A program made the position numbers and the translations under genes. Source: Spirulina sp. (lineage in GTDB: Bacteria; Cyanobacteriota; Cyanobacteriia; Phormidesmidales; Phormidesmidaceae). From it: DNA of 64,000 nt. Of the stretch, positions 1,902 to 42,099 are shown one piece after another. Numbering within the stretch: the first letter of the stretch is position 1; each line of letters starts with the position of its first letter. Below the pieces are notes generated by a model, which worked only from the letters and a program-made list of their open reading frames with translations, was not told the origin of the DNA and ran no database searches. Location of the stretch: NCBI GenBank assembly GCA_044070495.1, contig JBIPSI010000013.1:1-64000 (forward strand). Reading direction: 5' to 3'.

Positions 1902-3179
1902 CTAAAAAACCGTGCCATCACTCGCCAGGGTAATCGGTGGCCCACCGTGGGGGCGTTTTTCGGCGGCGAGGGCGCGGCCTGCGGCCCAGGTGCCGCCTTG
2001 CAGAATTTTCACTAGAGGCAATTCGGTGGCGGATTGGTGGAGTTGTTGACGCAGGAGATCCGCTAGATCATCCAGCAGGCAGAGGGTGAGGGCACGCCAT
2101 TCCACAATCAGGGGCGAGTTGGGGGGATGGGCAACCTCCAGGTCAGTAGGGTCTTTGAGGCTGAGGACGCCGCTGTCGAGGAAGAGGCCACCGTTGCGAT
2201 ATTCCGCCAGTCCGGTGAGCCGATCCAGGTCGGTGATGGTGAGGCCCAGGTCTTGCAGAGGTTCCAACAAAGAATAGGTGAGCCACTGGGAAAGCTTGTG
2301 GAACGGGACGAGTTGGCTCCCCAAGCCCGTATCCGGCAGTTGGGGATGGAGCCACACATCGCCCAGGTTGACACCGCCCAGGGTGGTGCGCCCCGGCCAG
2401 ATGGAGCCAAATCCTTGCAGGACAGTATGCAATACCGTGACCGCTGAGAGGGTTTGATCCTCGGACTGATTCAGCCAATGATCCACCAAATTTCCAGGGC
2501 GAGGATTTGTTTCACCGAACAGGTGGGGCTGCTGTTGCAGGGCATGACCCAAAGTTTGCAGCAGCGAAACCCGACCCGCTAGGCCCAACAGCGGGTTTTC
2601 GGGATTGACTTGAAAAGCGTCACCGAGTCGTTCCGGGGTGAGGTGACTGAGGCCGAGGGCGTCCGCCTGCCAGGGGTGATCGGGTTGGCTGGAAAAAAGC
2701 CCCTGCACAAAGCTGTGGAAGCTGGCGATAGCCAATCCTTCCGACCGTTGAAAGACTTGCCCCGTTCCTGGTTCAACATAGCGCCAGGTGGCCCCGGCCC
2801 CAGCATCTAACAGAACACTGGTTACCGCCAGATCCACCTTTAGCCGCGCTTGTTCGAGGGGATCGAGCTGGGATAAGCCCGGTTCTAGGGTCGCTAACCG
2901 AGAAACGCCATCCACCTCAAAGTGTCGCCAGCGGGAATGGAAGGGCACATCGCCCTGGGGATAGGCCCGATCCATCAGCCGCCGCACATAGTCTGCCGCT
3001 GTGGGTAGGGCTTCTGGGTGCAGCCGCAGATGGCGTAGCTGATCCGCCTCGGCCAGGGCATAGAGCATCCGGCAGCGCTCCCGGATGGCCTGGGGGCTTT
3101 GCAGATAGGCGACGACCTCGGCGGGTTGGGTTAGATCGGTCTTGGTTATTGGGGCGATGTTTTCGGTCGTGGCTTGCAT
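1902..3179 (-). CDS. URC4/urg3 family protein (DUF1688), putative uracil catabolism
   Basis: PFHSRWRHF, SVLLDAGAG, RSEGLA, PFHKLSQWLTYSL, LTGLAEYRNGGL and SDGTVF C-terminus. Confidence 0.9.
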   Translation of the reverse strand: MQATTENIAPITKTDLTQPAEVVAYLQSPQAIRERCRMLYALAEADQLRHLRLHPEALPTAADYVRRLMDRAYPQGDVPFHSRWRHFEVDGVSRLATLEPGLSQLDPLEQARLKVDLAVTSVLLDAGAGATWRYVEPGTGQVFQRSEGLAIASFHSFVQGLFSSQPDHPWQADALGLSHLTPERLGDAFQVNPENPLLGLAGRVSLLQTLGHALQQQPHLFGETNPRPGNLVDHWLNQSEDQTLSAVTVLHTVLQGFGSIWPGRTTLGGVNLGDVWLHPQLPDTGLGSQLVPFHKLSQWLTYSLLEPLQDLGLTITDLDRLTGLAEYRNGGLFLDSGVLSLKDPTDLEVAHPPNSPLIVEWRALTLCLLDDLADLLRQQLHQSATELPLVKILQGGTWAAGRALAAEKRPHGGPPITLASDGTVF

Positions 3180-3220
3180 CAATACCGTCCTTATCCTGTG
3201 GTGATTGGCCAAATTAAGGG

Positions 3221-3369
3221 AGATCCCCCTAAATCCCCCTACCCTGCGGGAAGCCGCAAGCGTCTATAAAAAGGGGGACTTTGAATCCGATTCCCTCCTT
3301 TTCAAGGGGGGCAGGGGGGGATCAACCCTAGGAACCCAGCGGAATAGAAACTTGTGTATAAGCAGTAGC
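3221..3369 (+). repeat. about 125-bp cyanobacterial dispersed repeat (copy 1) with a nested 26-bp insertion
   Basis: near-identical to the reverse complement of 11529-11650 except for the extra accctgcgggaagccgcaagcgtcta. Confidence 0.8.
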
Positions 3370-3416
3370 CCATAGGGAGAGTCGGCCAGAAGCGATCTTA
3401 ACCATGACGGGTTCGG

Positions 3417-3998
3417 CTACAGCAGGAGGTAGCGCAGATTTACCGTCACCTCTGGACACTGGAGGGGTGCCCGTTGGTCATCGGCCCCTAGAATTTGCTC
3501 CTGTTGGTAGGTTTCGCCCTGGGGATCATGTAGGACGATCATCTGTCGCTGGGGCAGGTCGATAATCCAGTATTCTGGGATGCCTGCTTTGGCGTAGATG
3601 GCGGCTTTGTGGGTGCGGTCGCGGGTGAGGGTGGCATCGGCCACTTCGATCAGCAGCAGGATGTCTTGGGGGCCGGGGTGCCGATCTCGGTAGCGGTTGG
3701 GGTCTGGGCGAACGATGGCGAAATCTGGCTCTGGCTCTGACCCTGGGGCCAGGGTAACGGGAAGCTGCACCCGTACCTTGGCCCGCTGGGCAAACAGCGC
3801 CTTGAGGTAGTCGCCGCCATCGTCAATGCGGGAGGCGTGGGGCGGGTTCTGCGGTACCCTCTCGACGATTTGCCCCTCCAGCAACTCCACCCGATCCTCC
3901 GACGACAAAATGCCCGCCCCCAACATCCGGTGATAGTCCTCCACCGTCCATTGTTTGAGGGTCAAATCCCTCACACTCTGGGGAAATACCTGCACCAT
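3417..3998 (-). CDS. Uma2 family endonuclease
   Basis: WTVEDYHRM, RVELLEGQI, EPEPDFAIV and GIPEYWIID motifs. Confidence 0.9.
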   Translation of the reverse strand: MVQVFPQSVRDLTLKQWTVEDYHRMLGAGILSSEDRVELLEGQIVERVPQNPPHASRIDDGGDYLKALFAQRAKVRVQLPVTLAPGSEPEPDFAIVRPDPNRYRDRHPGPQDILLLIEVADATLTRDRTHKAAIYAKAGIPEYWIIDLPQRQMIVLHDPQGETYQQEQILGADDQRAPLQCPEVTVNLRYLLL

Positions 3999-4027
3999 GG
4001 GGCATCCTCCTGCTTACGACTATCCTG

Positions 4028-5338
<1,311 letters not shown>

Positions 5339-34664: not shown

Positions 34665-35165
34665 TTAAGGAATCTCAGCCGCTAAGGCCCTGAGCCAGTC
34701 TACAAAAGCCCTGACATCCTTTTGCACATTAGACCAAACCTCAGGATAGCTTTCGACTAAGACGGCGACTCGATTGGGGTCAAGTTCAAATCCGTACAAG
34801 TTCCTGACAATGTGCCGAAACCCCAAGAATTCCCGCAAACTCGCAGCAGTTTCTCGCGTTAGGATGGCGGGTCTGCCGTCCCGCTCTTGGCTCATGCGAT
34901 CCAAAAGTCGTTTATGCCCATCGGATCCCGAAGGTAGCCCCCCATTTAGCTCGACAGCCACCAGTTGTAAAATCTTCTCGCAGCCTGTGTAGAAATTATG
35001 GAGCTTAAGGGCCAGATTTTCGTAAAACAAGTCTTGCCTGGATGAATCCCCCGCAATTTCACCCTGTACCCGGTAGATTTCTTGCTCTAACTGGCTTAAA
35101 CGGGTTAAATCCATTTCAATGTCGGCGGCAAGTTCGCCCACCGCATCGGCACTAATCACTTTCAT
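34665..35165 (-). CDS. HEPN/HepT-like ribonuclease toxin
   Basis: LHNFYTGCEKI and FLGFRHIVRNLYGFEL; overlaps the MNT gene. Confidence 0.85.
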   Translation of the reverse strand: MKVISADAVGELAADIEMDLTRLSQLEQEIYRVQGEIAGDSSRQDLFYENLALKLHNFYTGCEKILQLVAVELNGGLPSGSDGHKRLLDRMSQERDGRPAILTRETAASLREFLGFRHIVRNLYGFELDPNRVAVLVESYPEVWSNVQKDVRAFVDWLRALAAEIP

Positions 35166-35565
35166 CTACCTCTACTCCTGTTGCCAAAACGCGATCTCGA
35201 AAATGGGGGGTGAGCGCGTCTAGGGGCTTGAGATCAACCCAACGTTGGCTAAAGTCATTAGCCCTGGCAACCGCCTCAAAATATCGTTCAGGGGGGATGT
35301 GCTCTGCGGCTAAGTCAATGTCAGAATCGGGCGTAAAACGACCTCGGACGAGCGATCCAAACACTAAAATGCGCTGTGCACCAAACTCCTGACGCAAACA
35401 TTGGGCCATCTGCCGCACCTCCCGCCACGCCTGATCCATCGCTTGGGTTTGTTGCTCGGCTTGGTTTGCCGTGCGTTGCCGCCAGTAGTCGATATATTTA
35501 GGATCAACCTTCACTGACCGGGACGAATTGGGCGGGGATACATCTGGCTGAGGTAAATCCATCAT
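35152..35565 (-). CDS. minimal nucleotidyltransferase (MNT) antitoxin
   Basis: LVFGSLVRGRFTPDSDIDLA (GS...DxD motif). Confidence 0.88.
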   Translation of the reverse strand: MMDLPQPDVSPPNSSRSVKVDPKYIDYWRQRTANQAEQQTQAMDQAWREVRQMAQCLRQEFGAQRILVFGSLVRGRFTPDSDIDLAAEHIPPERYFEAVARANDFSQRWVDLKPLDALTPHFRDRVLATGVEVDESD

Positions 35566-35587
35566 CCGCACCTCCCTTACAAGCTTT

Positions 35588-35617
35588 GTTCTAAGGTTAC
35601 AAGTTCTAAGGTTACAA
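35588..35617. repeat. perfect 15-bp direct repeat upstream of the MNT gene
   Basis: GTTCTAAGGTTACAA x2. Confidence 0.8.
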
Positions 35618-35642
35618 ACTGGTGTGCCATGGTCGTGGATAT

Positions 35643-36224
35643 TCAGGGTTCCTGACGGTTCGCGGGCCGCAAAAAATCCCCCACAGCCAGGGCGCAATCG
35701 GGAAACGCCAGGGGAATGATCGTGTCTTGGTCGTAGAGCTTCTGCTCTATACCGTAGCCCTCGGCCCCTGGTTGCCGAAACAGGTAAAGACAGCGATCCT
35801 GCACATCCAAAATCCAGTATTCGGCAATACCCGAACGTCCGTATAACGGCACCTTGAGGTCACGGTCTCGTCGCAGAGTGCTATCGGCCACCTCAATCAG
35901 CCAAAAGATTTCTGCGGGGGTAGGGTGGTGATCTTCGTAGTCCAGCGGGTCGATGCGTACCACGGCTACATCGGGTTCGGGTTCAGAAAAATCGCTGAGC
36001 TGCACCAGATCTTGAAATCGCAGCAAGGCCCGACCCCTCAGCCGTTGCGACAGGACTCGATCCAACCGCGTTACGGCGGCACTGTGGGCCGTTCCCTTAG
36101 CTAACCTGGTATAAAGTTGTCCTTCGATCAGTTCTACCCGCTCATCCGCCGCCAAAATTCCCGCCTCTGCCATGCGGTGATAGTCCTGTACATTCAGCGC
36201 TCGTAGATCGGTGGCCGCTGTCAT
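35643..36224 (-). CDS. Uma2 family endonuclease
   Basis: DYHRMAEAGIL, ERVELIEG, EPEPDVAVV and GIAEYWILD. Confidence 0.9.
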   Translation of the reverse strand: MTAATDLRALNVQDYHRMAEAGILAADERVELIEGQLYTRLAKGTAHSAAVTRLDRVLSQRLRGRALLRFQDLVQLSDFSEPEPDVAVVRIDPLDYEDHHPTPAEIFWLIEVADSTLRRDRDLKVPLYGRSGIAEYWILDVQDRCLYLFRQPGAEGYGIEQKLYDQDTIIPLAFPDCALAVGDFLRPANRQEP

Positions 36225-36341
36225 GGAGATAAGGGGGTATAGGGCTGCTTCCTAATTATGAACGATGCTGATGCAGGGGAATCGCCCAGGACACTCCAAC
36301 CTCTCGCTATCATAGAAGACCATCTCTTTCTTCTTCCTGTC

Positions 36342-37490
36342 ATGGCCGCTTCTTCCCTACCAACCGCCACTTCCCTAACCCCAACCGTCAGCGGGGAGAA
36401 TCCTGAGGCTGTCCAGCAGGCGGAATCAGCGGTTACAGAGAATGCGGAGCGTTCAACCATGTCAGGAACTCAGGTCAGCCAACCCCTTCTTGGCCAATCC
36501 CTGGAAGCGCTGACGGCTTGGATGGTGGCCCAAGGGCAACCCGCCTATCGGGGTAAGCAGTTGCACCAGTGGCTCTATCAGCAGGGGGCGCGGTCGCTGC
36601 AAGATATCACCGTTTTTCCCAAGGCGTGGCGGCAGCAGGTGGAAGGGGTTTCGGTGGGTCGCTCGGAAATCTACCACCGCACCGAGGCCAGGGATGGCAC
36701 CGTCAAGTATCTGCTGAAGCTGGCCGATGGGCAGATTATCGAAGCGGTAGGGATGCCCTCGGCCAAGCGGCTGACGGTGTGTGTGTCGTCTCAGGTGGGG
36801 TGCCCCATGGCCTGCGACTTTTGCGCCACGGGCAAGGGCGGCTTTTTGCGCAACCTGGCCACCCACGAAATCGTCGATCAGGTGCTAACCGTACAGGAAG
36901 ACTTTGGCCAGCGGGTCAGCAACATCGTCTTTATGGGCATGGGCGAACCGCTGCTGAACACTGACAACGTGGTTGCCGCCATCCGCTGCCTGAATCAGGA
37001 TGTGGGCATCAGCCAGCGATCCATGACCCTCTCCACCGTGGGCATTCCAGGCCGCATTCGCAAACTGGCGGACGAGCAACTTCAGGTCACCCTGGCGGTC
37101 AGCCTCCACGCCTCCAACCAAGCCCAGCGCAAAGACCTCATCCCCAGCGCCAAGGCCTATCCCCTGACGGAACTGCTGGAGGAATGCCGCGACTATGTCA
37201 AACTGACTGGGCGGCGCGTCACCTTTGAGTACATTCTGCTGGCGGGCTTAAATGATCAGCCCAAAAACGCCGTGGAACTGGCCCAACATCTGCGCGGCTT
37301 CCAAAGCCACGTCAACCTCATCCCCTACAACCCCATCAACGAGGTGGACTACCAGCGCCCCACCGAAGCCAGCATCCGCGAGTTTGTGGCCCAGCTCGAA
37401 TCTCGCCACATTGCCGTCAGTGTCCGCTATTCCAGAGGGCTAGAGGAAAACGCCGCCTGCGGCCAACTTCGCGCCTCTAAGGTGGCCTAG
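36342..37490 (+). CDS. rlmN: 23S rRNA m2A2503 methyltransferase RlmN
   Basis: [23 protein letters not shown] and AACGQL; start may be 36459. Confidence 0.95.
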
Positions 37491-37781
37491 GGAATGAGTT
37501 TCTTGTGGAAGTTGATCTACACAGAAGGGCGGTCAGAGTAAGTTTTTACCCTGCTGGACGGACAAAACTTGCTAGAACTCAACTCCATCGAAGGGTCAGG
37601 AAACCTGACCCCCACCTTATTCCAACGCTGTAGGGGCGCGGTTTCCGCGCCCAATGCAGAATCTTTTGTCAGTCAACCAGGTTGTTACCATTGGGTGGGC
37701 CACAACTCGACCATAGTCTAAGGGCAATTCCGCACAATTCCCAGACAATAGAATGGCCCTCTCCATCCCCGGAGGTTTACT

Positions 37782-40235
37782 ATGGCGCGCCATCGTTCAT
37801 CCATTCGCAAAAAAGACGATTTCGCTGCATCCCCTAAACCCTCTTCCGACCCATTCCAACCTCGTCCCTTTGCGGATCCAGCGGTGGATGAGATTACCCA
37901 CTCCCCAGCCAATAGCGCCCCTCCAATTCTCGATAAACTCGTAACACCGCCGCCTCGGTCTGTCCCCATCCAGCCCAAACTCACCATCGGCGCACCGGGC
38001 GATAGGTATGAACAAGAGGCGGATCGCTTGGCTAGCCAAGTGGTGCAGCAAATTCATGGGCCACAAACCAACCATTCCGTTCAGCGAGAAGCGATTGAAG
38101 ACGAAGAACTGCAAATGAAACCCAATTTCCTGCAAAGGGAATCCATCGAAGACGACGAGGAACTGCAAATGCGCCCCGCCACGGAAGCTGTTGAGGGTGG
38201 ACCAGCCTCCAAAGATTTAGAATCCGCCATTCACCAAGCCAGGGGCAGCGGCCAAGCCCTAGACCCCAACCTACAACGGCAAATGGGCCAAGCCCTAGGA
38301 GCCGATTTCAGCGGCATTACCATTCACACCGATAGTCAATCCGACCAGCTCAATCGCTCCATTCAAGCCAAGGCGTTTACTACTGGGCAGGATATTTTCT
38401 TCCGCCAAGGAGCCTATCAGCCGAGTAGCCAGAATGGGCAAGAACTCATTGCCCATGAGTTAACCCATGTGGTGCAGCAGGGCAAAGAAACGACGTTGCG
38501 CCGCTCACCCAACGCTGTCCAGCGAGATATGGATGAGGACTTACGTAAAGCTATCCTGTCGCGACGAGGATTAGCGACCGGACAAGACAGTGAAACAACT
38601 CGCCGAGAACAAGCCCAAGAACGTCATACTGCCATGACGACTAGCAACGAACGGCAGCAGCAATCTGGAGAATTGCACAGTTTTTTGAAGAGTAACCTGC
38701 GGAAACGTCGGGGTATGGTTACGGGCCAAAGTAGTGAAGAGGTCAGTCAAGAATTTGGCCTAGAAGACTTTACTACCTCTGCCGGGAAACGAGCCACTGA
38801 GGAGGCCCAAGGGGTGAGTGGTGATCCGATGATGGATCGGATAGCCCTACAGGAAAAAATTGCAACTCGCGGTGCATTAGGTAGTCAAGGTTTGGCTACT
38901 TTAATGAATCAGAATCGGCAGCGAGAAGTGGATAAAGCTTCATCTTTTAAGGACTTGTCAGACACCCATAACGAACAACTCGATAGCCATCGTCAAGGAC
39001 GGCAAGCTATTGATAAAGCTGTTTGGGACTATGGTGAACCAGCTCGACTCAAAGCGGTTATTGAGCATGAATCGAAAGCCCAACAGGCTAATTTTTCAGC
39101 CATGCTTAAGGATGCCTTATCCCTAGCTAATAACGCAAAACTAGCTGCCAGTTGGGATACAACAGAATTAGAGAAACTTAGCCAAACGGCCCAAGACTCG
39201 TTTAATGCCATTGCTGCACCGCTGGCTGATACCATCGATGCCATCGCTCCCCGTGTTCAAATAGCGCAGACTGCCATTGTAGCCGTCAACCTCAGGGCTA
39301 ATCAGGATCTTGATTGGATGAACCAACTCCAGCCTCGTACTGAGGCCGATATTATATCCGGTGTTGAAAGATTTAAGCAGGGTGATACTACAATCATCAA
39401 TACTAATATGTCGCAGGCTTGGGCATCCATTCTCTCGAACGGTGGGCAATCAACTCGCGACACCACTCTTCTTGATGAAAAATTTAAGGAGCTAGCCAAA
39501 GAAATTGATCGAAAGACACCAATAGATGAGAATAGTATCAAACAAAGCTTGACTGGAAATCCTAGTCAAAAAAATACTGCTCTCGATTTACTAAAACAGA
39601 AAATCACTAGCAACAAAAAAAGTACCATCAGCAAAATTATCGCTTCTGAATCTAATGCTAAAACTCTAACTGGATATGCTAATCAACTGGATGAATTGGA
39701 CGGCTTTAATGTTGTTTTGGAGAATACGACTGATCGAGGTAAGTTGGCTCAAATTCTTCAAAAGTCTAAGCGTAATTTGCCTGCCCTGCTTCGCATATAT
39801 AAAGCCTATAATAATGATGCCAACAAGGTTCATTTTCTACTCTGTGGTAATGGTGGCCAGGAGATTATTAATTTAGAGGACTGGCTGAAGAAGAATGGTA
39901 AGGTGTGGACAGGAGACACGACAAATCCCCCAGCCTTTCAGCCTACGGGTACAACGAGAGATCAGATTGAAAATGTGGCTGTTCCTAAGACTGGTTCTTC
40001 CTCTCCTGCGGCGGGGGGCTATGCAGGTAATCGTGCCTATGGAACAAATACCCAACCTCCCGATATGCTGCTCCCTCAACAGACAACGACTAAACAGGCG
40101 ATTACCTACACAGAATATGACATTAAGCCCTACCACCCAGGACAAAACCGTGGCGGAGAACGCTTTGTGAAAGGGAGTGATGGTCGCTATTACTACACTA
40201 GCGATCACTACAAGACGTTTAAGCAATTTACTTAG
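37782..40235 (+). CDS. DUF4157 (eCIS-associated) protein with a C-terminal barnase/RNase Sa-type ribonuclease domain
   Basis: QPKLTIGAPGDRYEQEAD, EELQM repeats, ADFSGITIHTD...AFTTGQDIFF...AHELTHVVQQ; C-terminal YTEYDI...NRGGERFV...YYTSDHYKTF. Confidence 0.88.
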   Translation: MARHRSSIRKKDDFAASPKPSSDPFQPRPFADPAVDEITHSPANSAPPILDKLVTPPPRSVPIQPKLTIGAPGDRYEQEADRLASQVVQQIHGPQTNHSVQREAIEDEELQMKPNFLQRESIEDDEELQMRPATEAVEGGPASKDLESAIHQARGSGQALDPNLQRQMGQALGADFSGITIHTDSQSDQLNRSIQAKAFTTGQDIFFRQGAYQPSSQNGQELIAHELTHVVQQGKETTLRRSPNAVQRDMDEDLRKAILSRRGLATGQDSETTRREQAQERHTAMTTSNERQQQSGELHSFLKSNLRKRRGMVTGQSSEEVSQEFGLEDFTTSAGKRATEEAQGVSGDPMMDRIALQEKIATRGALGSQGLATLMNQNRQREVDKASSFKDLSDTHNEQLDSHRQGRQAIDKAVWDYGEPARLKAVIEHESKAQQANFSAMLKDALSLANNAKLAASWDTTELEKLSQTAQDSFNAIAAPLADTIDAIAPRVQIAQTAIVAVNLRANQDLDWMNQLQPRTEADIISGVERFKQGDTTIINTNMSQAWASILSNGGQSTRDTTLLDEKFKELAKEIDRKTPIDENSIKQSLTGNPSQKNTALDLLKQKITSNKKSTISKIIASESNAKTLTGYANQLDELDGFNVVLENTTDRGKLAQILQKSKRNLPALLRIYKAYNNDANKVHFLLCGNGGQEIINLEDWLKKNGKVWTGDTTNPPAFQPTGTTRDQIENVAVPKTGSSSPAAGGYAGNRAYGTNTQPPDMLLPQQTTTKQAITYTEYDIKPYHPGQNRGGERFVKGSDGRYYYTSDHYKTFKQFT

Positions 40236-40265
40236 TACCAACCTTCGTTCAATGGTTCATAGACT

Positions 40266-40754
40266 ATGGCTAGCCCCCTATCGCTGACTCACCCTGAAAT
40301 ATTCTATGTTCTAGCTGAAGACGAGTCGGACTTTGCTACTCGCTATATGACCCTTCAGGCTGACTATCCTAATGCCCGTATCGTTCGAGTGCGCGGGAGC
40401 AAAATGCGCTCTCTTTCAGCCCTATTCGATGAGATTTCCGCAGCTTTTCAATTTCCCTACTACTTTGGCGAAAATTGGGTCGCCCTCTACGATTGTTTGA
40501 CCGATTTAGACTGGGCCAAGGCTCAGGACTATCTCCTGCTAGTTAGCGACGCTCACCTTGTTTTAGGCGATGAGCCTACCACCATGCTGAAGAAATTTTT
40601 AGACCTCCTCGTTGAAGTACATCGGGCCTGGAGTAGCACATCAGACCAGGGCGAGACAACTTCTTTTCGGATGATTTTTCAAACTTCTCCCGATTCAGAA
40701 GCTATCTGGTGGGAAAAACTCTACCTTGCTGGTTATGCCCATCCACCGACTTAG
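40266..40754 (+). CDS. barstar-family ribonuclease inhibitor (immunity protein)
   Basis: RGSKMRSLSALFDEISAAFQFPYYFGENWVALYDCLTDLDW. Confidence 0.88.
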   Translation: MASPLSLTHPEIFYVLAEDESDFATRYMTLQADYPNARIVRVRGSKMRSLSALFDEISAAFQFPYYFGENWVALYDCLTDLDWAKAQDYLLLVSDAHLVLGDEPTTMLKKFLDLLVEVHRAWSSTSDQGETTSFRMIFQTSPDSEAIWWEKLYLAGYAHPPT

Positions 40755-40884
40755 AGGGCGTTTGAAAAGGGTTGCCTCAGGTGCGATTGGTCGCTAGATC
40801 GGCGCAAATCTACGGGATTTTTGACGACTGAGGCTGACCTCATCGGTATAACTTGGGACAAGCTTCGGCTTTTCAAACGTCCTC
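40754..40884. mobile_element. 131-bp MITE with 16-bp terminal inverted repeats and a TTA target-site duplication
   Basis: TTA-GAGGGCGTTTGAAAAG...CTTTTCAAACGTCCTC-TTA (one mismatch between the arms). Confidence 0.8.
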
Positions 40885-40902
40885 TTATTCCCTAGCTCAG
40901 AT

Positions 40903-42099
40903 CTACTCCGGCAGCCTATACTGTCCAACAATTTTCTTGGCAAAGTCGGGTACGTGGGCCGCTAGTTTTTCGGGATGGTTGCGTTTTAGATAGAGATAAT
41001 TTCGGGTGAAGTGGGAATCGATGGAGAAGCGGGCGTATTCCAGACCCTTGGGGCCAACTCGTTCGATGACCAGGCCCATCAGTTTGGCGGCCCACATGGG
41101 TAGGGTCACGCCTTTGTCGTAGGCGGGGATGCTTTGCTGCACGGCCTGGTGGCGATCCCCCTGGGACATGACGGGTTGGGTATCGAGCTGATCCATCACC
41201 AAATCCAGCATTTCTTGCCCAGTTTGGTTGCGAACCACAATCCACTGCCAGCCGAAGGGGGCACCCATGTAGCCCACCACCAGGTCGGCAAGGCCGTTGA
41301 CGTAGTCGAAACAACTCATGCAGGAGGGGGCAAAAACGTCCTTGAGCTGGTTGGTTTTGAGGCCGAAGAAGGGCACGGTTTCGGTGGAGCCGTCTTCGTG
41401 CTTGAAATGCACCCGGAAATCCTGCATGAACTCGTAGTGCACAACGGTTTCGGGGGAGCGGCTGGTGGTTTCTAGGAATTTTTGCAGCCCAGCCCGGCTG
41501 ACGTTATCCACGCAGGGGGTGCCCAGGACGTAGAGTTTCTCTAGGCCAAGTTTGTCTTCTATCGCACGCAGGGCTTGGATTTGACAGCCAACCCCAATCA
41601 CCAGCAAGCGCTTCATGCCCGACTGTTCCACCTGTTCTAGCACCGATAGATTGGGTGACAGGGTGGGCTTGTTGACACGGGCAGCGAGGATTTCCTCCGG
41701 CGTGGTGGCGATCACGGGCTTGGGTTGGAAGCGGTCTTCCTCGGTGTTTTGTACACAGACAACGCCCTCTACCTTGCCCTGGGTGAGCATTTCAATGGCG
41801 ATGGAACTGACGATGCCCGTCCACTGTGCCCCTTCGATGGGTTGCTGCTTGCGGGCCGCCATCATGTCTTGGTGGACGCCAAAATAGACCTCGTTATCCT
41901 GATCCAGATCCCGCTGGCGACCGTGGCTTTGTTCTTCTAGGGTAGGAAACTGTTGGTTGAGGAAAGCGCAGGCTTCCTTGACGTAGTGAATGTAGTAGGT
42001 ATCGCAGAAGCCACATTCGCTACACAGTTCCTTGGCCGGACGGGGGGCACCGGGACGCAGGGCTTTAGCTTTGTGATGGGGCGGCTGGGCCAGGGTCAT
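40903..42099 (-). CDS. bciB: ferredoxin-dependent 8-vinyl reductase (FrhB-like)
   Basis: RPAKELCSECGFCDT, GAQWTGIVS, GTPCVDN and SCMSCFDY; Slr1923/CvrA type. Confidence 0.88.
   Translation of the reverse strand: MTLAQPPHHKAKALRPGAPRPAKELCSECGFCDTYYIHYVKEACAFLNQQFPTLEEQSHGRQRDLDQDNEVYFGVHQDMMAARKQQPIEGAQWTGIVSSIAIEMLTQGKVEGVVCVQNTEEDRFQPKPVIATTPEEILAARVNKPTLSPNLSVLEQVEQSGMKRLLVIGVGCQIQALRAIEDKLGLEKLYVLGTPCVDNVSRAGLQKFLETTSRSPETVVHYEFMQDFRVHFKHEDGSTETVPFFGLKTNQLKDVFAPSCMSCFDYVNGLADLVVGYMGAPFGWQWIVVRNQTGQEMLDLVMDQLDTQPVMSQGDRHQAVQQSIPAYDKGVTLPMWAAKLMGLVIERVGPKGLEYARFSIDSHFTRNYLYLKRNHPEKLAAHVPDFAKKIVGQYRLPE

Follow-up and report, generated by a model that had tools for sequence, protein, structure and literature searches.

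The stretch of DNA considered here (the window, that is, positions 1 to 64,000 of contig JBIPSI010000013.1 of the Spirulina sp. assembly GCA_044070495.1) carries a pair of genes that probably encode a cargo ribonuclease (RNase) of a contractile injection system (CIS) of the extracellular type (eCIS), specified elsewhere in the same genome, together with its barstar immunity protein. The pair consists of two open reading frames (ORFs) on the plus strand, both with an ATG start and separated by 30 nt, namely 37782..40235, which encodes a protein of 817 aa, and 40266..40754, which encodes one of 162 aa. A constant head, a variable tip, a sharp junction between the two, a tip that has been swapped and an immunity gene placed directly 3' are the attributes by which polymorphic toxins are recognized, and all of these are observed here. 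It is very probable that the two products form an RNase-inhibitor pair, and delivery of the toxin by a contractile injection system is quite likely.

The earlier note on this DNA had described a DUF4157 module, a barnase-type tip and a downstream barstar, and Pfam searches confirmed all three above their cut-offs and well past what chance would give: PF13699 (eCIS_core, or DUF4157) at residues 160-235 of the 817-aa protein (E 1e-31, 109.4 bits, cut-off 22), PF00545 (Ribonuclease), which covers residues 763-816 of the same protein with 29.4 bits (E 1.2e-6; cut-off 24), and PF01337 (Barstar) at residues 38-128 of the 162-aa protein (E 2.9e-22, 78.9 bits, cut-off 23.4). The motifs that it had named are likewise all present, HELTH representing H225 to H229, while YTEYD contains E778, NRGGER contains R790 and R794, and SDHY contains H809 and Y810. 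Neither protein had a match in NCBIfam, and Pfam at E up to 0.1 returned nothing for residues 1-159 or 245-689 of the toxin.

Comparison with solved structures and with homologous sequences places the C-terminal tip among the barnase-like RNases. A phmmer search of the PDB sequences with the tip returned 44 distinct sequences at E up to 1, all of which are barnase, binase or RNase Sa, Sa2 or Sa3. When aligned to barnase (chain positions 66-108) and RNase Sa (51-90), residues E778, R790, R794, H809 and Y810 correspond to barnase E73, R83, R87, H102 and Y103, of which we take E73 to be the general base, R83 and R87 the phosphate-binding arginines, and H102 the general acid. In an alignment of 51 domains, comprising the domain itself and 50 shorter matches picked from the 150 listed, no change is seen at R790, R794, H809 or Y810, and E778 is retained in at least 90% of the sequences; among those 150 the RNase match lies at the C-terminal end of the protein. 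An AlphaFold2 (AF2) model of residues 245-817, based on a 10-sequence alignment (mean predicted local distance difference test score, pLDDT, 80.1; predicted template modelling score 0.50), gave the tip pLDDT values of mostly 83-94, and VIA-align matched it to RNase Sa (1ay7_A, Z 6.4, root-mean-square deviation (rmsd) 3.3, 87 of 96 residues aligned), to a barnase fusion chain (2c4b_B, Z 6.5) and to barnase (1bnf_A, Z 6.4), while Foldseek paired it with barnase and binase at a probability of 1.00 and an E value of only ~1e-2. As the tip aligns to nearly the whole of RNase Sa, the domain as modelled spans residues ~708-817 and represents a complete barnase-type fold, even though Pfam detects its second half only. 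In barnase-type RNases an Asn-Arg-Glu loop is responsible for guanine recognition; in the corresponding loop of the tip N750 is invariant and R751 at least 90% kept among relatives of the toxin's C-terminal part, and the Glu position, which varies in these relatives, is taken by Ala752. The tip is predicted to have RNase activity.

The same RNase is found in many other contexts. An exhaustive phmmer search with the last 177 residues against 1.84 billion representative sequences yielded 1222 matches at E up to 0.001, 162 at 1e-10 and 11 at 1e-30. Among 40 longer proteins with this tip, PF13699 occurs in 4 and RHS and/or PT-HINT in 9, most others showing the RNase only, and among the 120 best relatives of the head two others combine PF13699 with PF00545. 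These counts indicate that the tip is a widely shared toxin module and that DUF4157-barnase fusions recur. A six-frame search of the genome found a single PF00545 match (32.9 bits), and the barstar gene provides its single PF01337 match, so that there is no downstream array of spare tip and immunity cassettes in this genome.

The inhibitor is of a long form, at 162 aa compared with the 89-90 aa of solved barstar chains, one of which aligns over positions 6-45 to its residues 42-83 (E 1.1e-4). The Asp of the DCL motif, presumably Asp39 in the usual barstar numbering, is retained as D76 and Tyr29 as Y66, and the position of Asp35 is occupied by Val72; the D76 column holds D or E in the rows inspected of a 19-sequence barstar alignment. 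Long barstars of 160-180 aa form a family with 20 members, itself included, at E up to 0.001 among 44 candidates. Complex modelling of the C-terminal domain with the barstar, proposed in the earlier note as a check, came through its controls: using the 51-row alignment for the RNase domain and 19 rows for the barstar, the interface score ipSAE (interaction prediction score from aligned errors) was 0.86, 0.86 and 0.82 as against 0.01 for the best control, values that express likeness to the solved barnase-barstar and RNase Sa-barstar pairs only. The mark applied to such scores is reached by 116 of 157 solved complexes and by 2 of 215 mismatched pairs. The runs share at least 94% of their contacts, the partner has a pLDDT of 91, and the modelled H809 and Y810 contact barstar residues 66-76, D76 among them. 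A barstar gene follows the toxin gene in all three examined loci with this tip, i.e. in the window, in a more distant locus (L021, where the gap is 7 nt) and in another genome of the phylum (G062).

The genome, which comprises 5.31 Mb in 74 contigs and is 97% complete, contains five PF13699 genes, with products of 817, 626, 656, 918 and ~700-727 aa, and the search for other DUF4157 genes with different tips, again a proposal of the earlier note, thus produced four. The five paralogs are alike up to the sequence ...HELTHVVQQ, which ends at Q233 in the toxin, and unalignable beyond it. Their heads are 70-80% identical in DNA, and the blastn matches of the toxin gene end at gene-relative positions 1089-1101, the last Q codon ending at 1099. 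Base composition changes across the same junction, with a GC content of 0.546-0.581 in the heads and 0.420-0.510 in the tips (0.32-0.51 at third codon positions), the genome standing at 0.567, the toxin's own tip at 0.457 and the barstar gene at 0.487. None of the other four tips has a Pfam domain.

Direct evidence that the tip was replaced at the Q233 junction between close relatives comes from a search with 6.6 kb of DNA around the gene against 30 relatives. The stretch that encodes the C-terminal part and the barstar (query 2881-5150) has no match in any of the 30, and several of them match the head. In the closest relative (G005), whose flanks are 87-89% identical, a 482-aa gene shares 207 of 233 head residues and also 64 nt of upstream DNA with the toxin gene; its DNA match ends at query 2880, and its remaining 249 residues are unrelated to the tip described here and contain no PF00545. 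Of 41 genomes sampled from the genus, 17, counting the present one, contain PF13699 genes, with one to six copies each.

The constant head is predicted to alternate between disorder and order. In the AF2 model disorder prevails in residues 1-60, gives way to an ordered strand and helix in residues 62-95 and returns in residues 96-138, after which an ordered core extends from residue 139 to about 235-239. Residues 1-60 are partly conserved among the five paralogs, in which an RPFA motif recurs. Within the core, H225, E226, H229 and Q232 are invariant in 43 diverse sequences. Its best structural match is the effector domain of VgrG2b (6h56_B, Z 7.3, rmsd 2.8 over 92 residues, 21% identity), followed at Z 3-4.4 by minigluzincins, M1 aminopeptidases and HtpX, the next row after 6h56_B having a Z of 4.4; Foldseek with the N-terminal module found nothing at E 0.001 or better, the rows including selecase (E 6.4) and jannalysin (E 9.8). 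The zinc ligands of VgrG2b are H935, H939 and E983, the last one located 44 residues past the HExxH motif (PMC6899460). In the protein described here conservation stops four residues after H229, and neither the five paralogs nor the 43 relatives have a conserved third zinc ligand after Q233. On the other side of the core, Glu77 on the N-terminal YEQEAD helix is invariant in the 43 sequences, and the model orders this helix together with the core. Either the third ligand comes from the Glu77 helix, therefore, or the module is a non-working peptidase, and with the junction lying four residues past HExxH one may ask if the DUF4157 zincin has all that it needs for catalysis. Short motifs of a hydrophobic residue, Gln or Arg and Arg flank the core in most paralogs, and it is a matter of speculation that these may be cleavage sites.

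A candidate delivery machine for such a head is encoded in the genome, in three separate places. A cluster on contig C7 (40396-58861; L015/L016) contains a sheath gene, four gp19-type tube genes, a CIS_tube gene and a cap gene with Pvc16_N (DUF4255), as well as a histidine kinase and a LuxR-type regulator; one on contig C30 (47943-55630; L022) contains gp25, Baseplate_J, Tail_P2_I and a WD40 protein; and a third, at the start of contig C14 (1133-9187; L018), specifies a VgrG-like spike (Phage_base_V plus a weak GPD match), a PAAR-like DUF4280 protein, a Cache/HAMP protein and an AAA+ ATPase with a winged-helix domain, which is followed directly by a DUF4157 paralog (C14b) and then by a RelB/ParE pair. 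The eCIS parts, namely sheath, gp19 tube, spike, gp25, Baseplate_J, DUF4255 cap and AAA ATPase, are therefore all found over these three contigs, and this set agrees with the eCIS core list of Geller et al. (PMC8213781). Published eCIS descriptions that we have drawn upon present one operon; here sheath, tube and cap, the baseplate wedge, and spike, PAAR-like protein, ATPase and effector make up three clusters. Since non-CIS genes flank the C7 and C30 clusters on both sides, this three-way split is real in the assembly and not just an effect of contig ends. Among the tube genes lies a 2391-aa ORF (C7:40853-48028, minus strand; L015:10854-18029) that has no Pfam match and may encode a length-determining, tape-measure-like protein or a giant cargo.

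The search for an eCIS or type VI secretion system (T6SS) locus, which the earlier note had also suggested, thus ended with eCIS-type genes, and delivery by a T6SS was rejected because a search of the genome (97% complete) found no VipB sheath. PAAR (PF05488) has no match in the genome, where the PAAR-like DUF4280 is present. The statement in that note that the window holds no injection-system structural genes stands to the extent that it was examined, as none was found by Pfam on the 24 ORFs between 25178 and 55431, and genome-wide searches for the sheath, gp19 tube, gp25, GPD, PAAR and VipB families gave no match on the window's contig (C13). Its description of an orphan polymorphic toxin-immunity module, located away from injection-system genes, is likewise upheld.

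Taken together, the preferred reading is that of a cargo RNase loaded into the particles of the genome's eCIS-type system. From the likeness to characterized systems we infer its loading, the part played by each head segment and the nature of its target as follows. The constant head (residues 1-233) would carry the loading signal, most likely in its disordered N-terminal stretch, which would be recognized with the help of the AAA+ ATPase, and the DUF4157 zincin-like module would be an accessory that processes, refolds or stabilizes the cargo. The toxin cassette (residues ~236-817), presumably imported, would consist of a poorly ordered start, a helical domain of ~310 residues and the RNase, and this barnase/RNase Sa-type endoribonuclease would degrade RNA in a recipient cell. 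In the producer, the barstar would cover the RNase active site and thereby shield the cytoplasm until the toxin is packed. It had been argued earlier that the cognate immunity gene is consistent with interbacterial use. This does not follow, because any barnase-type RNase made in the cytoplasm would need an inhibitor whatever its target; the gene indicates that the producer must protect itself and leaves the target unspecified.

Several observations weigh against this reading at one step or another. The PF00545 match covers positions 45-97 of a profile of 98, i.e. its C-terminal half only, and sequence matches of the tip to solved RNases are weak, the best having an E value of 0.019 (phmmer, PDB sequences). 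The base specificity may differ from that of barnase, because the Glu of the recognition loop is replaced by Ala752, and the complex score may possibly reflect the model's memory of the solved complexes that it resembles. The DUF4157 zincin may not be a working peptidase, as no conserved counterpart of VgrG2b E983 is seen. The gene is not located beside any injection-system gene; of the five paralogs only C14b is so placed, in the classical site after the ATPase, and the other four, the toxin gene among them, are scattered; 88% of known eCIS toxins lie within about ten genes of the eCIS operon (Danov 2024, PMC11297309), a distance within which C14b falls and the toxin gene described here does not. 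Finally, extracellular injection is not safe to assume, because the only cyanobacterial CIS studied so far is anchored to the thylakoid, is not released and is tied to stress-induced lysis (PMC8894136).

This last point underlies the alternative that survives best, a possible although not a favoured one, in which toxin and machine are the same and the machine stays attached to the cell, as does the CIS on the thylakoids of Anabaena. The RNase would then be exposed or fired only once stress has lysed the producer ("ghost cells"), and would be directed at grazers, predators or neighbours as the cell dies, instead of being set free on particles for competition among bacteria. The host fits such a scenario, as the genome is cyanobacterial by gene content (CobN/Mg-chelatase, DUF2808, DUF3086) and the named relatives of the head among the 120 best are all cyanobacterial. 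In the Anabaena study, moreover, two putative DUF4157 effectors were found by mass spectrometry in the preparation, while not being visible in the structure (PMC8894136). On the other hand, the same paper ties anchoring to Cis13's transmembrane domain, an extension in Cis12 and the crown of Cis19, the Cis13 domain being reported from filamentous cyanobacteria only (PMC8894136), and a barstar gene is equally expected for cell-bound and for released delivery.

A further point concerns the long middle part of the toxin, which the earlier note had described as an unrecognized helical region. No family match was indeed obtained for it, and yet it does not appear to be a spacer, as it belongs to a conserved cassette together with the RNase and the long barstar. 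When residues 690-817 were searched among proteins of similar length, only four others were found (P0003-P0006, 563-668 aa), none of which contains PF13699 and all of which can be aligned with the toxin, at 38-41% identity, over the whole of its sequence past about residue 300; an exhaustive search added five further cassette members (P0011-P0014, P0019). The helical domain is conserved alongside the RNase in these nine relatives. AF2 places its helices at cassette residues 153-460, where pLDDT starts in the 50s-70s and is 85 or more beyond about cassette residue 180, so that the domain is of high confidence from about residue 424 of the protein onwards. Neither the middle region nor the whole protein had a PHROGs match. 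In structure searches, for which the domain was used as folded within residues 245-817, Foldseek against the PDB gave nothing, the ESM Atlas gave no usable feature match for residues 390-705 and structure rows with a TM score of 0.32 or below, and a wide VIA-align search returned designed proteins and helical bundles of a generic kind, none above Z 8.0, which is under the noise level stated for helical proteins in that tool. A relationship to tape-measure proteins, as in Streptomyces CIS effectors, was considered for the middle region and found no support in Pfam or PHROGs.

The distribution of the cassette is sparse. In a sample of 401 genomes from the phylum, matches to it at E up to 1e-5 are confined to the present genome and G062, the latter matching at the RNase end only; the G062 gene encodes a protein of 1138 aa that has PF13699 at 110 bits and, at 23.1 bits (cut-off 24), a barnase tip, and is followed by one for a barstar of 173 aa. 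Locus L021, from a metagenome-assembled genome of an uncultured member of the Ilumatobacteraceae (Actinobacteriota), has a cassette relative followed by a 176-aa barstar (PF01337, E 6e-20); its toxin gene is preceded by a glycosyltransferase gene, and no DUF4157 is present on that 6.7-kb contig. By sequence comparison, then, the cassette of helical domain plus RNase appears to be rare and present across phyla without the head, which raises the question of what role the conserved helical domain plays when attached to the RNase. One could go further and propose that the C-terminal ~580 residues together with the 160-180-aa barstar represent an undescribed, self-contained cassette that moves between platforms and phyla, its helical domain being a working part of the toxin (in entry, tube packing or refolding), and that DUF4157 is a split or permuted zincin which uses Glu77 as a ligand and cuts at VQR 100 and 246 to free the cassette after delivery. 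This combined proposal is regarded as doubtful.

The cassette's occurrence without DUF4157 elsewhere (P0003-P0006, L021) also implies that the toxin does not need the head, and this, together with the distance of the gene from all CIS genes, speaks for a module that is independent of any injection system, i.e. a released barnase-barstar-like nuclease or an intracellular toxin-antitoxin (TA) or defence pair, in which the DUF4157 head would represent either a remnant or an autoprocessing propeptide. Pairs of type II TA genes are indeed common near these loci, such as HepT/nucleotidyltransferase at 34665-35697 and RelB/ParE beside C14b. We nevertheless consider such independence very unlikely. 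Five genes with as many different tips retain the head at 70-80% nucleotide identity, and G005 retains 207 of its 233 residues, which argues for selection acting on the head; sibling C14b directly follows the AAA+ ATPase of the CIS; the sequence of the 817-aa protein shows no Sec-type signal or hydrophobic N-terminal stretch; and a toxin of this size, in the order toxin-then-immunity, fits polymorphic toxins better than TA modules (PMC3482391).

Equally improbable is the proposal, made in the earlier note, that DUF4157 itself serves as the delivery or loading domain: although it is the strongest single marker of eCIS toxins, being present in 36% of them as opposed to 0.06% of other genes (PMC11297309), and although a loading or chaperone role has been speculated upon by the authors of PMC8213781 and PMC11297309, AlgoCIS cargo that lacks DUF4157 is still present in particles whereas cargo without the disordered N-terminus is absent, cargo of the Photorhabdus virulence cassette (PVC) and of the metamorphosis-associated contractile structure (MAC) has no DUF4157 (both preprint 10.64898/2026.05.27.728243), and the toxicity of Cgo1 is independent of its HExxH motifs (PMC8894135). 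By analogy, the likely loading signal of the toxin described here is the common disordered segment of residues 1-60 and not DUF4157.

The AlgoCIS system offers the closest parallel for delivery. Its cargo proteins Cgo1 and Cgo2 are DUF4157 proteins that fill the tube lumen (PMC8894135); a disordered N-terminus is needed for their loading, DUF4157 and the C-terminal domain are dispensable for it, and an AAA+ protein has been proposed to unfold the cargo (preprint 10.64898/2026.05.27.728243). As in the present genome, several cargoes share an N-terminal part, composed of a disordered N-terminus and DUF4157, and differ at the C-terminus, a likeness of architecture by description. In contrast to the scattered gene described here, those of Cgo1 and Cgo2 lie inside the CIS cluster, their C-terminal domains are not RNases, and the published accounts cited here describe no immunity gene. 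For the toxin and its inhibitor the parallels are barnase-barstar and RNase Sa-barstar (PDB 1brs family, 1ay7), with which the tip shares its fold and the catalytic Glu, Arg, Arg and His, and the modelled inhibitor covers the active site with the helix and acidic residue that serve this purpose in barstar; barnase and RNase Sa differ in that the present RNase forms the last ~110 residues of an 817-aa protein without a Sec signal, at about 22-26% identity in structural alignments. The C-terminal metallopeptidase of VgrG2b from the Pseudomonas aeruginosa T6SS (6H56, PMC6899460) has the HExxH helix in common with the DUF4157 core, and is itself the toxin at the C-terminus of a spike protein, whereas the present domain is N-terminal.

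The architecture as such is already catalogued. Zhang et al. (2012, PMC3482391) list, in the Tox-Barnase row of their Table 1, PVC as one of the secretion routes, PVC-Metallopeptidase as protease, Imm-Barstar as immunity protein and cyanobacteria as one of the taxa, and their PVC-type polymorphic toxins likewise combine an N-terminal PVC-metallopeptidase, that is, DUF4157 with HExxHxxQ, with a variable toxin and the order toxin-then-immunity. Recombination between a constant peptidase and variable tips, and an autoproteolytic role for the peptidase, were put forward in the same study. Many PVC-type toxins are reported there to lack an immunity gene, unlike the present one, and the helical domain of ~310 residues attached to this RNase is not described in the portion of that catalogue used here. 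An N-terminal DUF4157, a C-terminal toxin and long linkers have since been presented as typical of eCIS toxins (PMC8213781), and cyanobacteria have been noted for their many DUF4157-headed toxin genes (Geller 2021, PMC8213781; Danov 2024, PMC11297309). DUF4157 is a textbook marker of such toxins. The main text of Geller 2021 contains no occurrence of barnase, barstar or RNase, although its supplementary tables may list such proteins, and a literature search on barnase and contractile injection gave no barnase-type eCIS cargo by title or abstract start, although supplementary tables may again list some. The present analysis adds a precisely placed junction, a closest relative with its tip swapped, a cassette that recurs in another phylum in proteins lacking DUF4157, eCIS genes divided among three places and the question of the third zinc ligand. 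While this is little that is new in principle, its value is that of a clean natural example, with five cargo genes in one genome that share one head and differ in their tips, a junction placed within a few nucleotides and a tip swapped in a relative; as the biochemistry of toxin and antidote is predictable, loading signals can be tested through RNase toxicity that is rescued with barstar.

Table 1. Features of the toxin-immunity module and its flanking repeats (positions in the window).
Feature	Positions	Strand	Evidence
High-copy short repeat (MITE-like; MITE, miniature inverted-repeat transposable element), upstream	37549..37684		About 80 blastn hits genome-wide, 67-93% identity
Toxin gene, 817 aa: common N-terminal module plus toxin cassette	37782..40235	+	ORF, translation, Pfam PF13699 and PF00545
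Residues 1-60: predicted disordered N-terminus, candidate system-specific loading signal	37782..37961	+	AF2 pLDDT 45-53 (residues 1-50); role by AlgoCIS analogy
Residues 62-95: conserved strand and helix (KLTIG...YEQEAD), Glu77 invariant; outside the Pfam model	37965..38066	+	Helix 75-92 pLDDT 90-94
Residues 96-138: disordered acidic repeats, VQRE / ELQMKP in two copies	38067..38195	+	pLDDT 46-50; motif census in five paralogs
Residues 139-235: DUF4157 / eCIS_core zincin-like core, H225-E226-x-x-H229-x-x-Q232	38196..38486	+	Pfam; pLDDT 92-97
Gln233 codon: recombination junction	38478..38480	+	End of similarity among paralogs and closest relative
Residues 236-396: low-confidence helical/disordered cassette start, two RRGxxTGxxxE-type motifs	38487..38969	+	Alignments; pLDDT mostly 44-71 (cassette residues 1-152)
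Residues 397-705: all-helical domain conserved with the RNase	38970..39896	+	AF2 helices; alignment with 9 relatives
Residues 708-817: barnase / RNase Sa-type domain (E778, R790, R794, H809, Y810)	39903..40232	+	Pfam, PDB alignments, structure matches, 51-sequence conservation
Immunity gene of the barstar family, 162 aa, long form extended at its N- and C-termini	40266..40754	+	Pfam, PDB match, complex model
Second MITE-like repeat, ~137 nt, beginning at the stop codon of the barstar gene; terminal inverted repeats of ~17 nt	40749..40890		About 58 blastn hits

The two repeats that flank the module (Table 1) differ in age. The upstream one, which lies ~100 nt 5' of the toxin gene and contains two GC-rich hairpins, is the older; several relatives also have copies, and others in this genome lie upstream of paralog C8 (C8:69257-69389) and close to the tube cluster of C7. 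Many copies of the downstream repeat are 95-99% identical, and it folds into a long hairpin and looks recently active. Both were considered as marks of a mobile unit and rejected as such, being high-copy across the genome and not specific to the module. Rfam at E up to 1 gave nothing in 37400-41000, and a scan for promoters and terminators found one promoter-like and two terminator-like sites, below the means of 3.3 and 4.2 in shuffled sequence. A listing of sequencing runs included no RNA run with the stretch and four DNA runs that contain part of it, with shares of 0.49, 0.49, 0.15 and 0.06.

Upstream of the module lie two Uma2-family genes and the HepT-like/nucleotidyltransferase (MNT) toxin-antitoxin pair mentioned above, which is on the minus strand, and beyond the barstar gene and its repeat follows an FrhB-family gene. 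The two genes that flank the module, an RlmN-like radical SAM gene (36258-37490) and the FrhB-family gene (40903-42099), are 3.4 kb apart here, and 25-29 kb apart in opposite relative orientation in all five relatives of the genus with both on one contig (G007, G012, G016, G017 and G018), so that the module is situated at a rearrangement breakpoint. Ordinary phage-type contractile tails, with P2-like sheath, FII tube, tape measure, GpU and baseplate V/J/I genes, are present elsewhere in the genome (C3:74566-79600 and 105475-115010; C40:13673-21794), the C3 set being split by about 25 kb of other DNA and a gene for a 1179-aa WD40 protein. A BrnT toxin gene neighbours the baseplate cluster of C30. 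On contig C8, the gene for the 918-aa DUF4157 paralog is followed by one of the YbjN family (C8:65562-66095, minus strand; L019:4563-5096; E 7.9e-7), the product of which is a possible chaperone or immunity partner of the C8 tip, a tip that, judged by its sequence, looks membrane-active.

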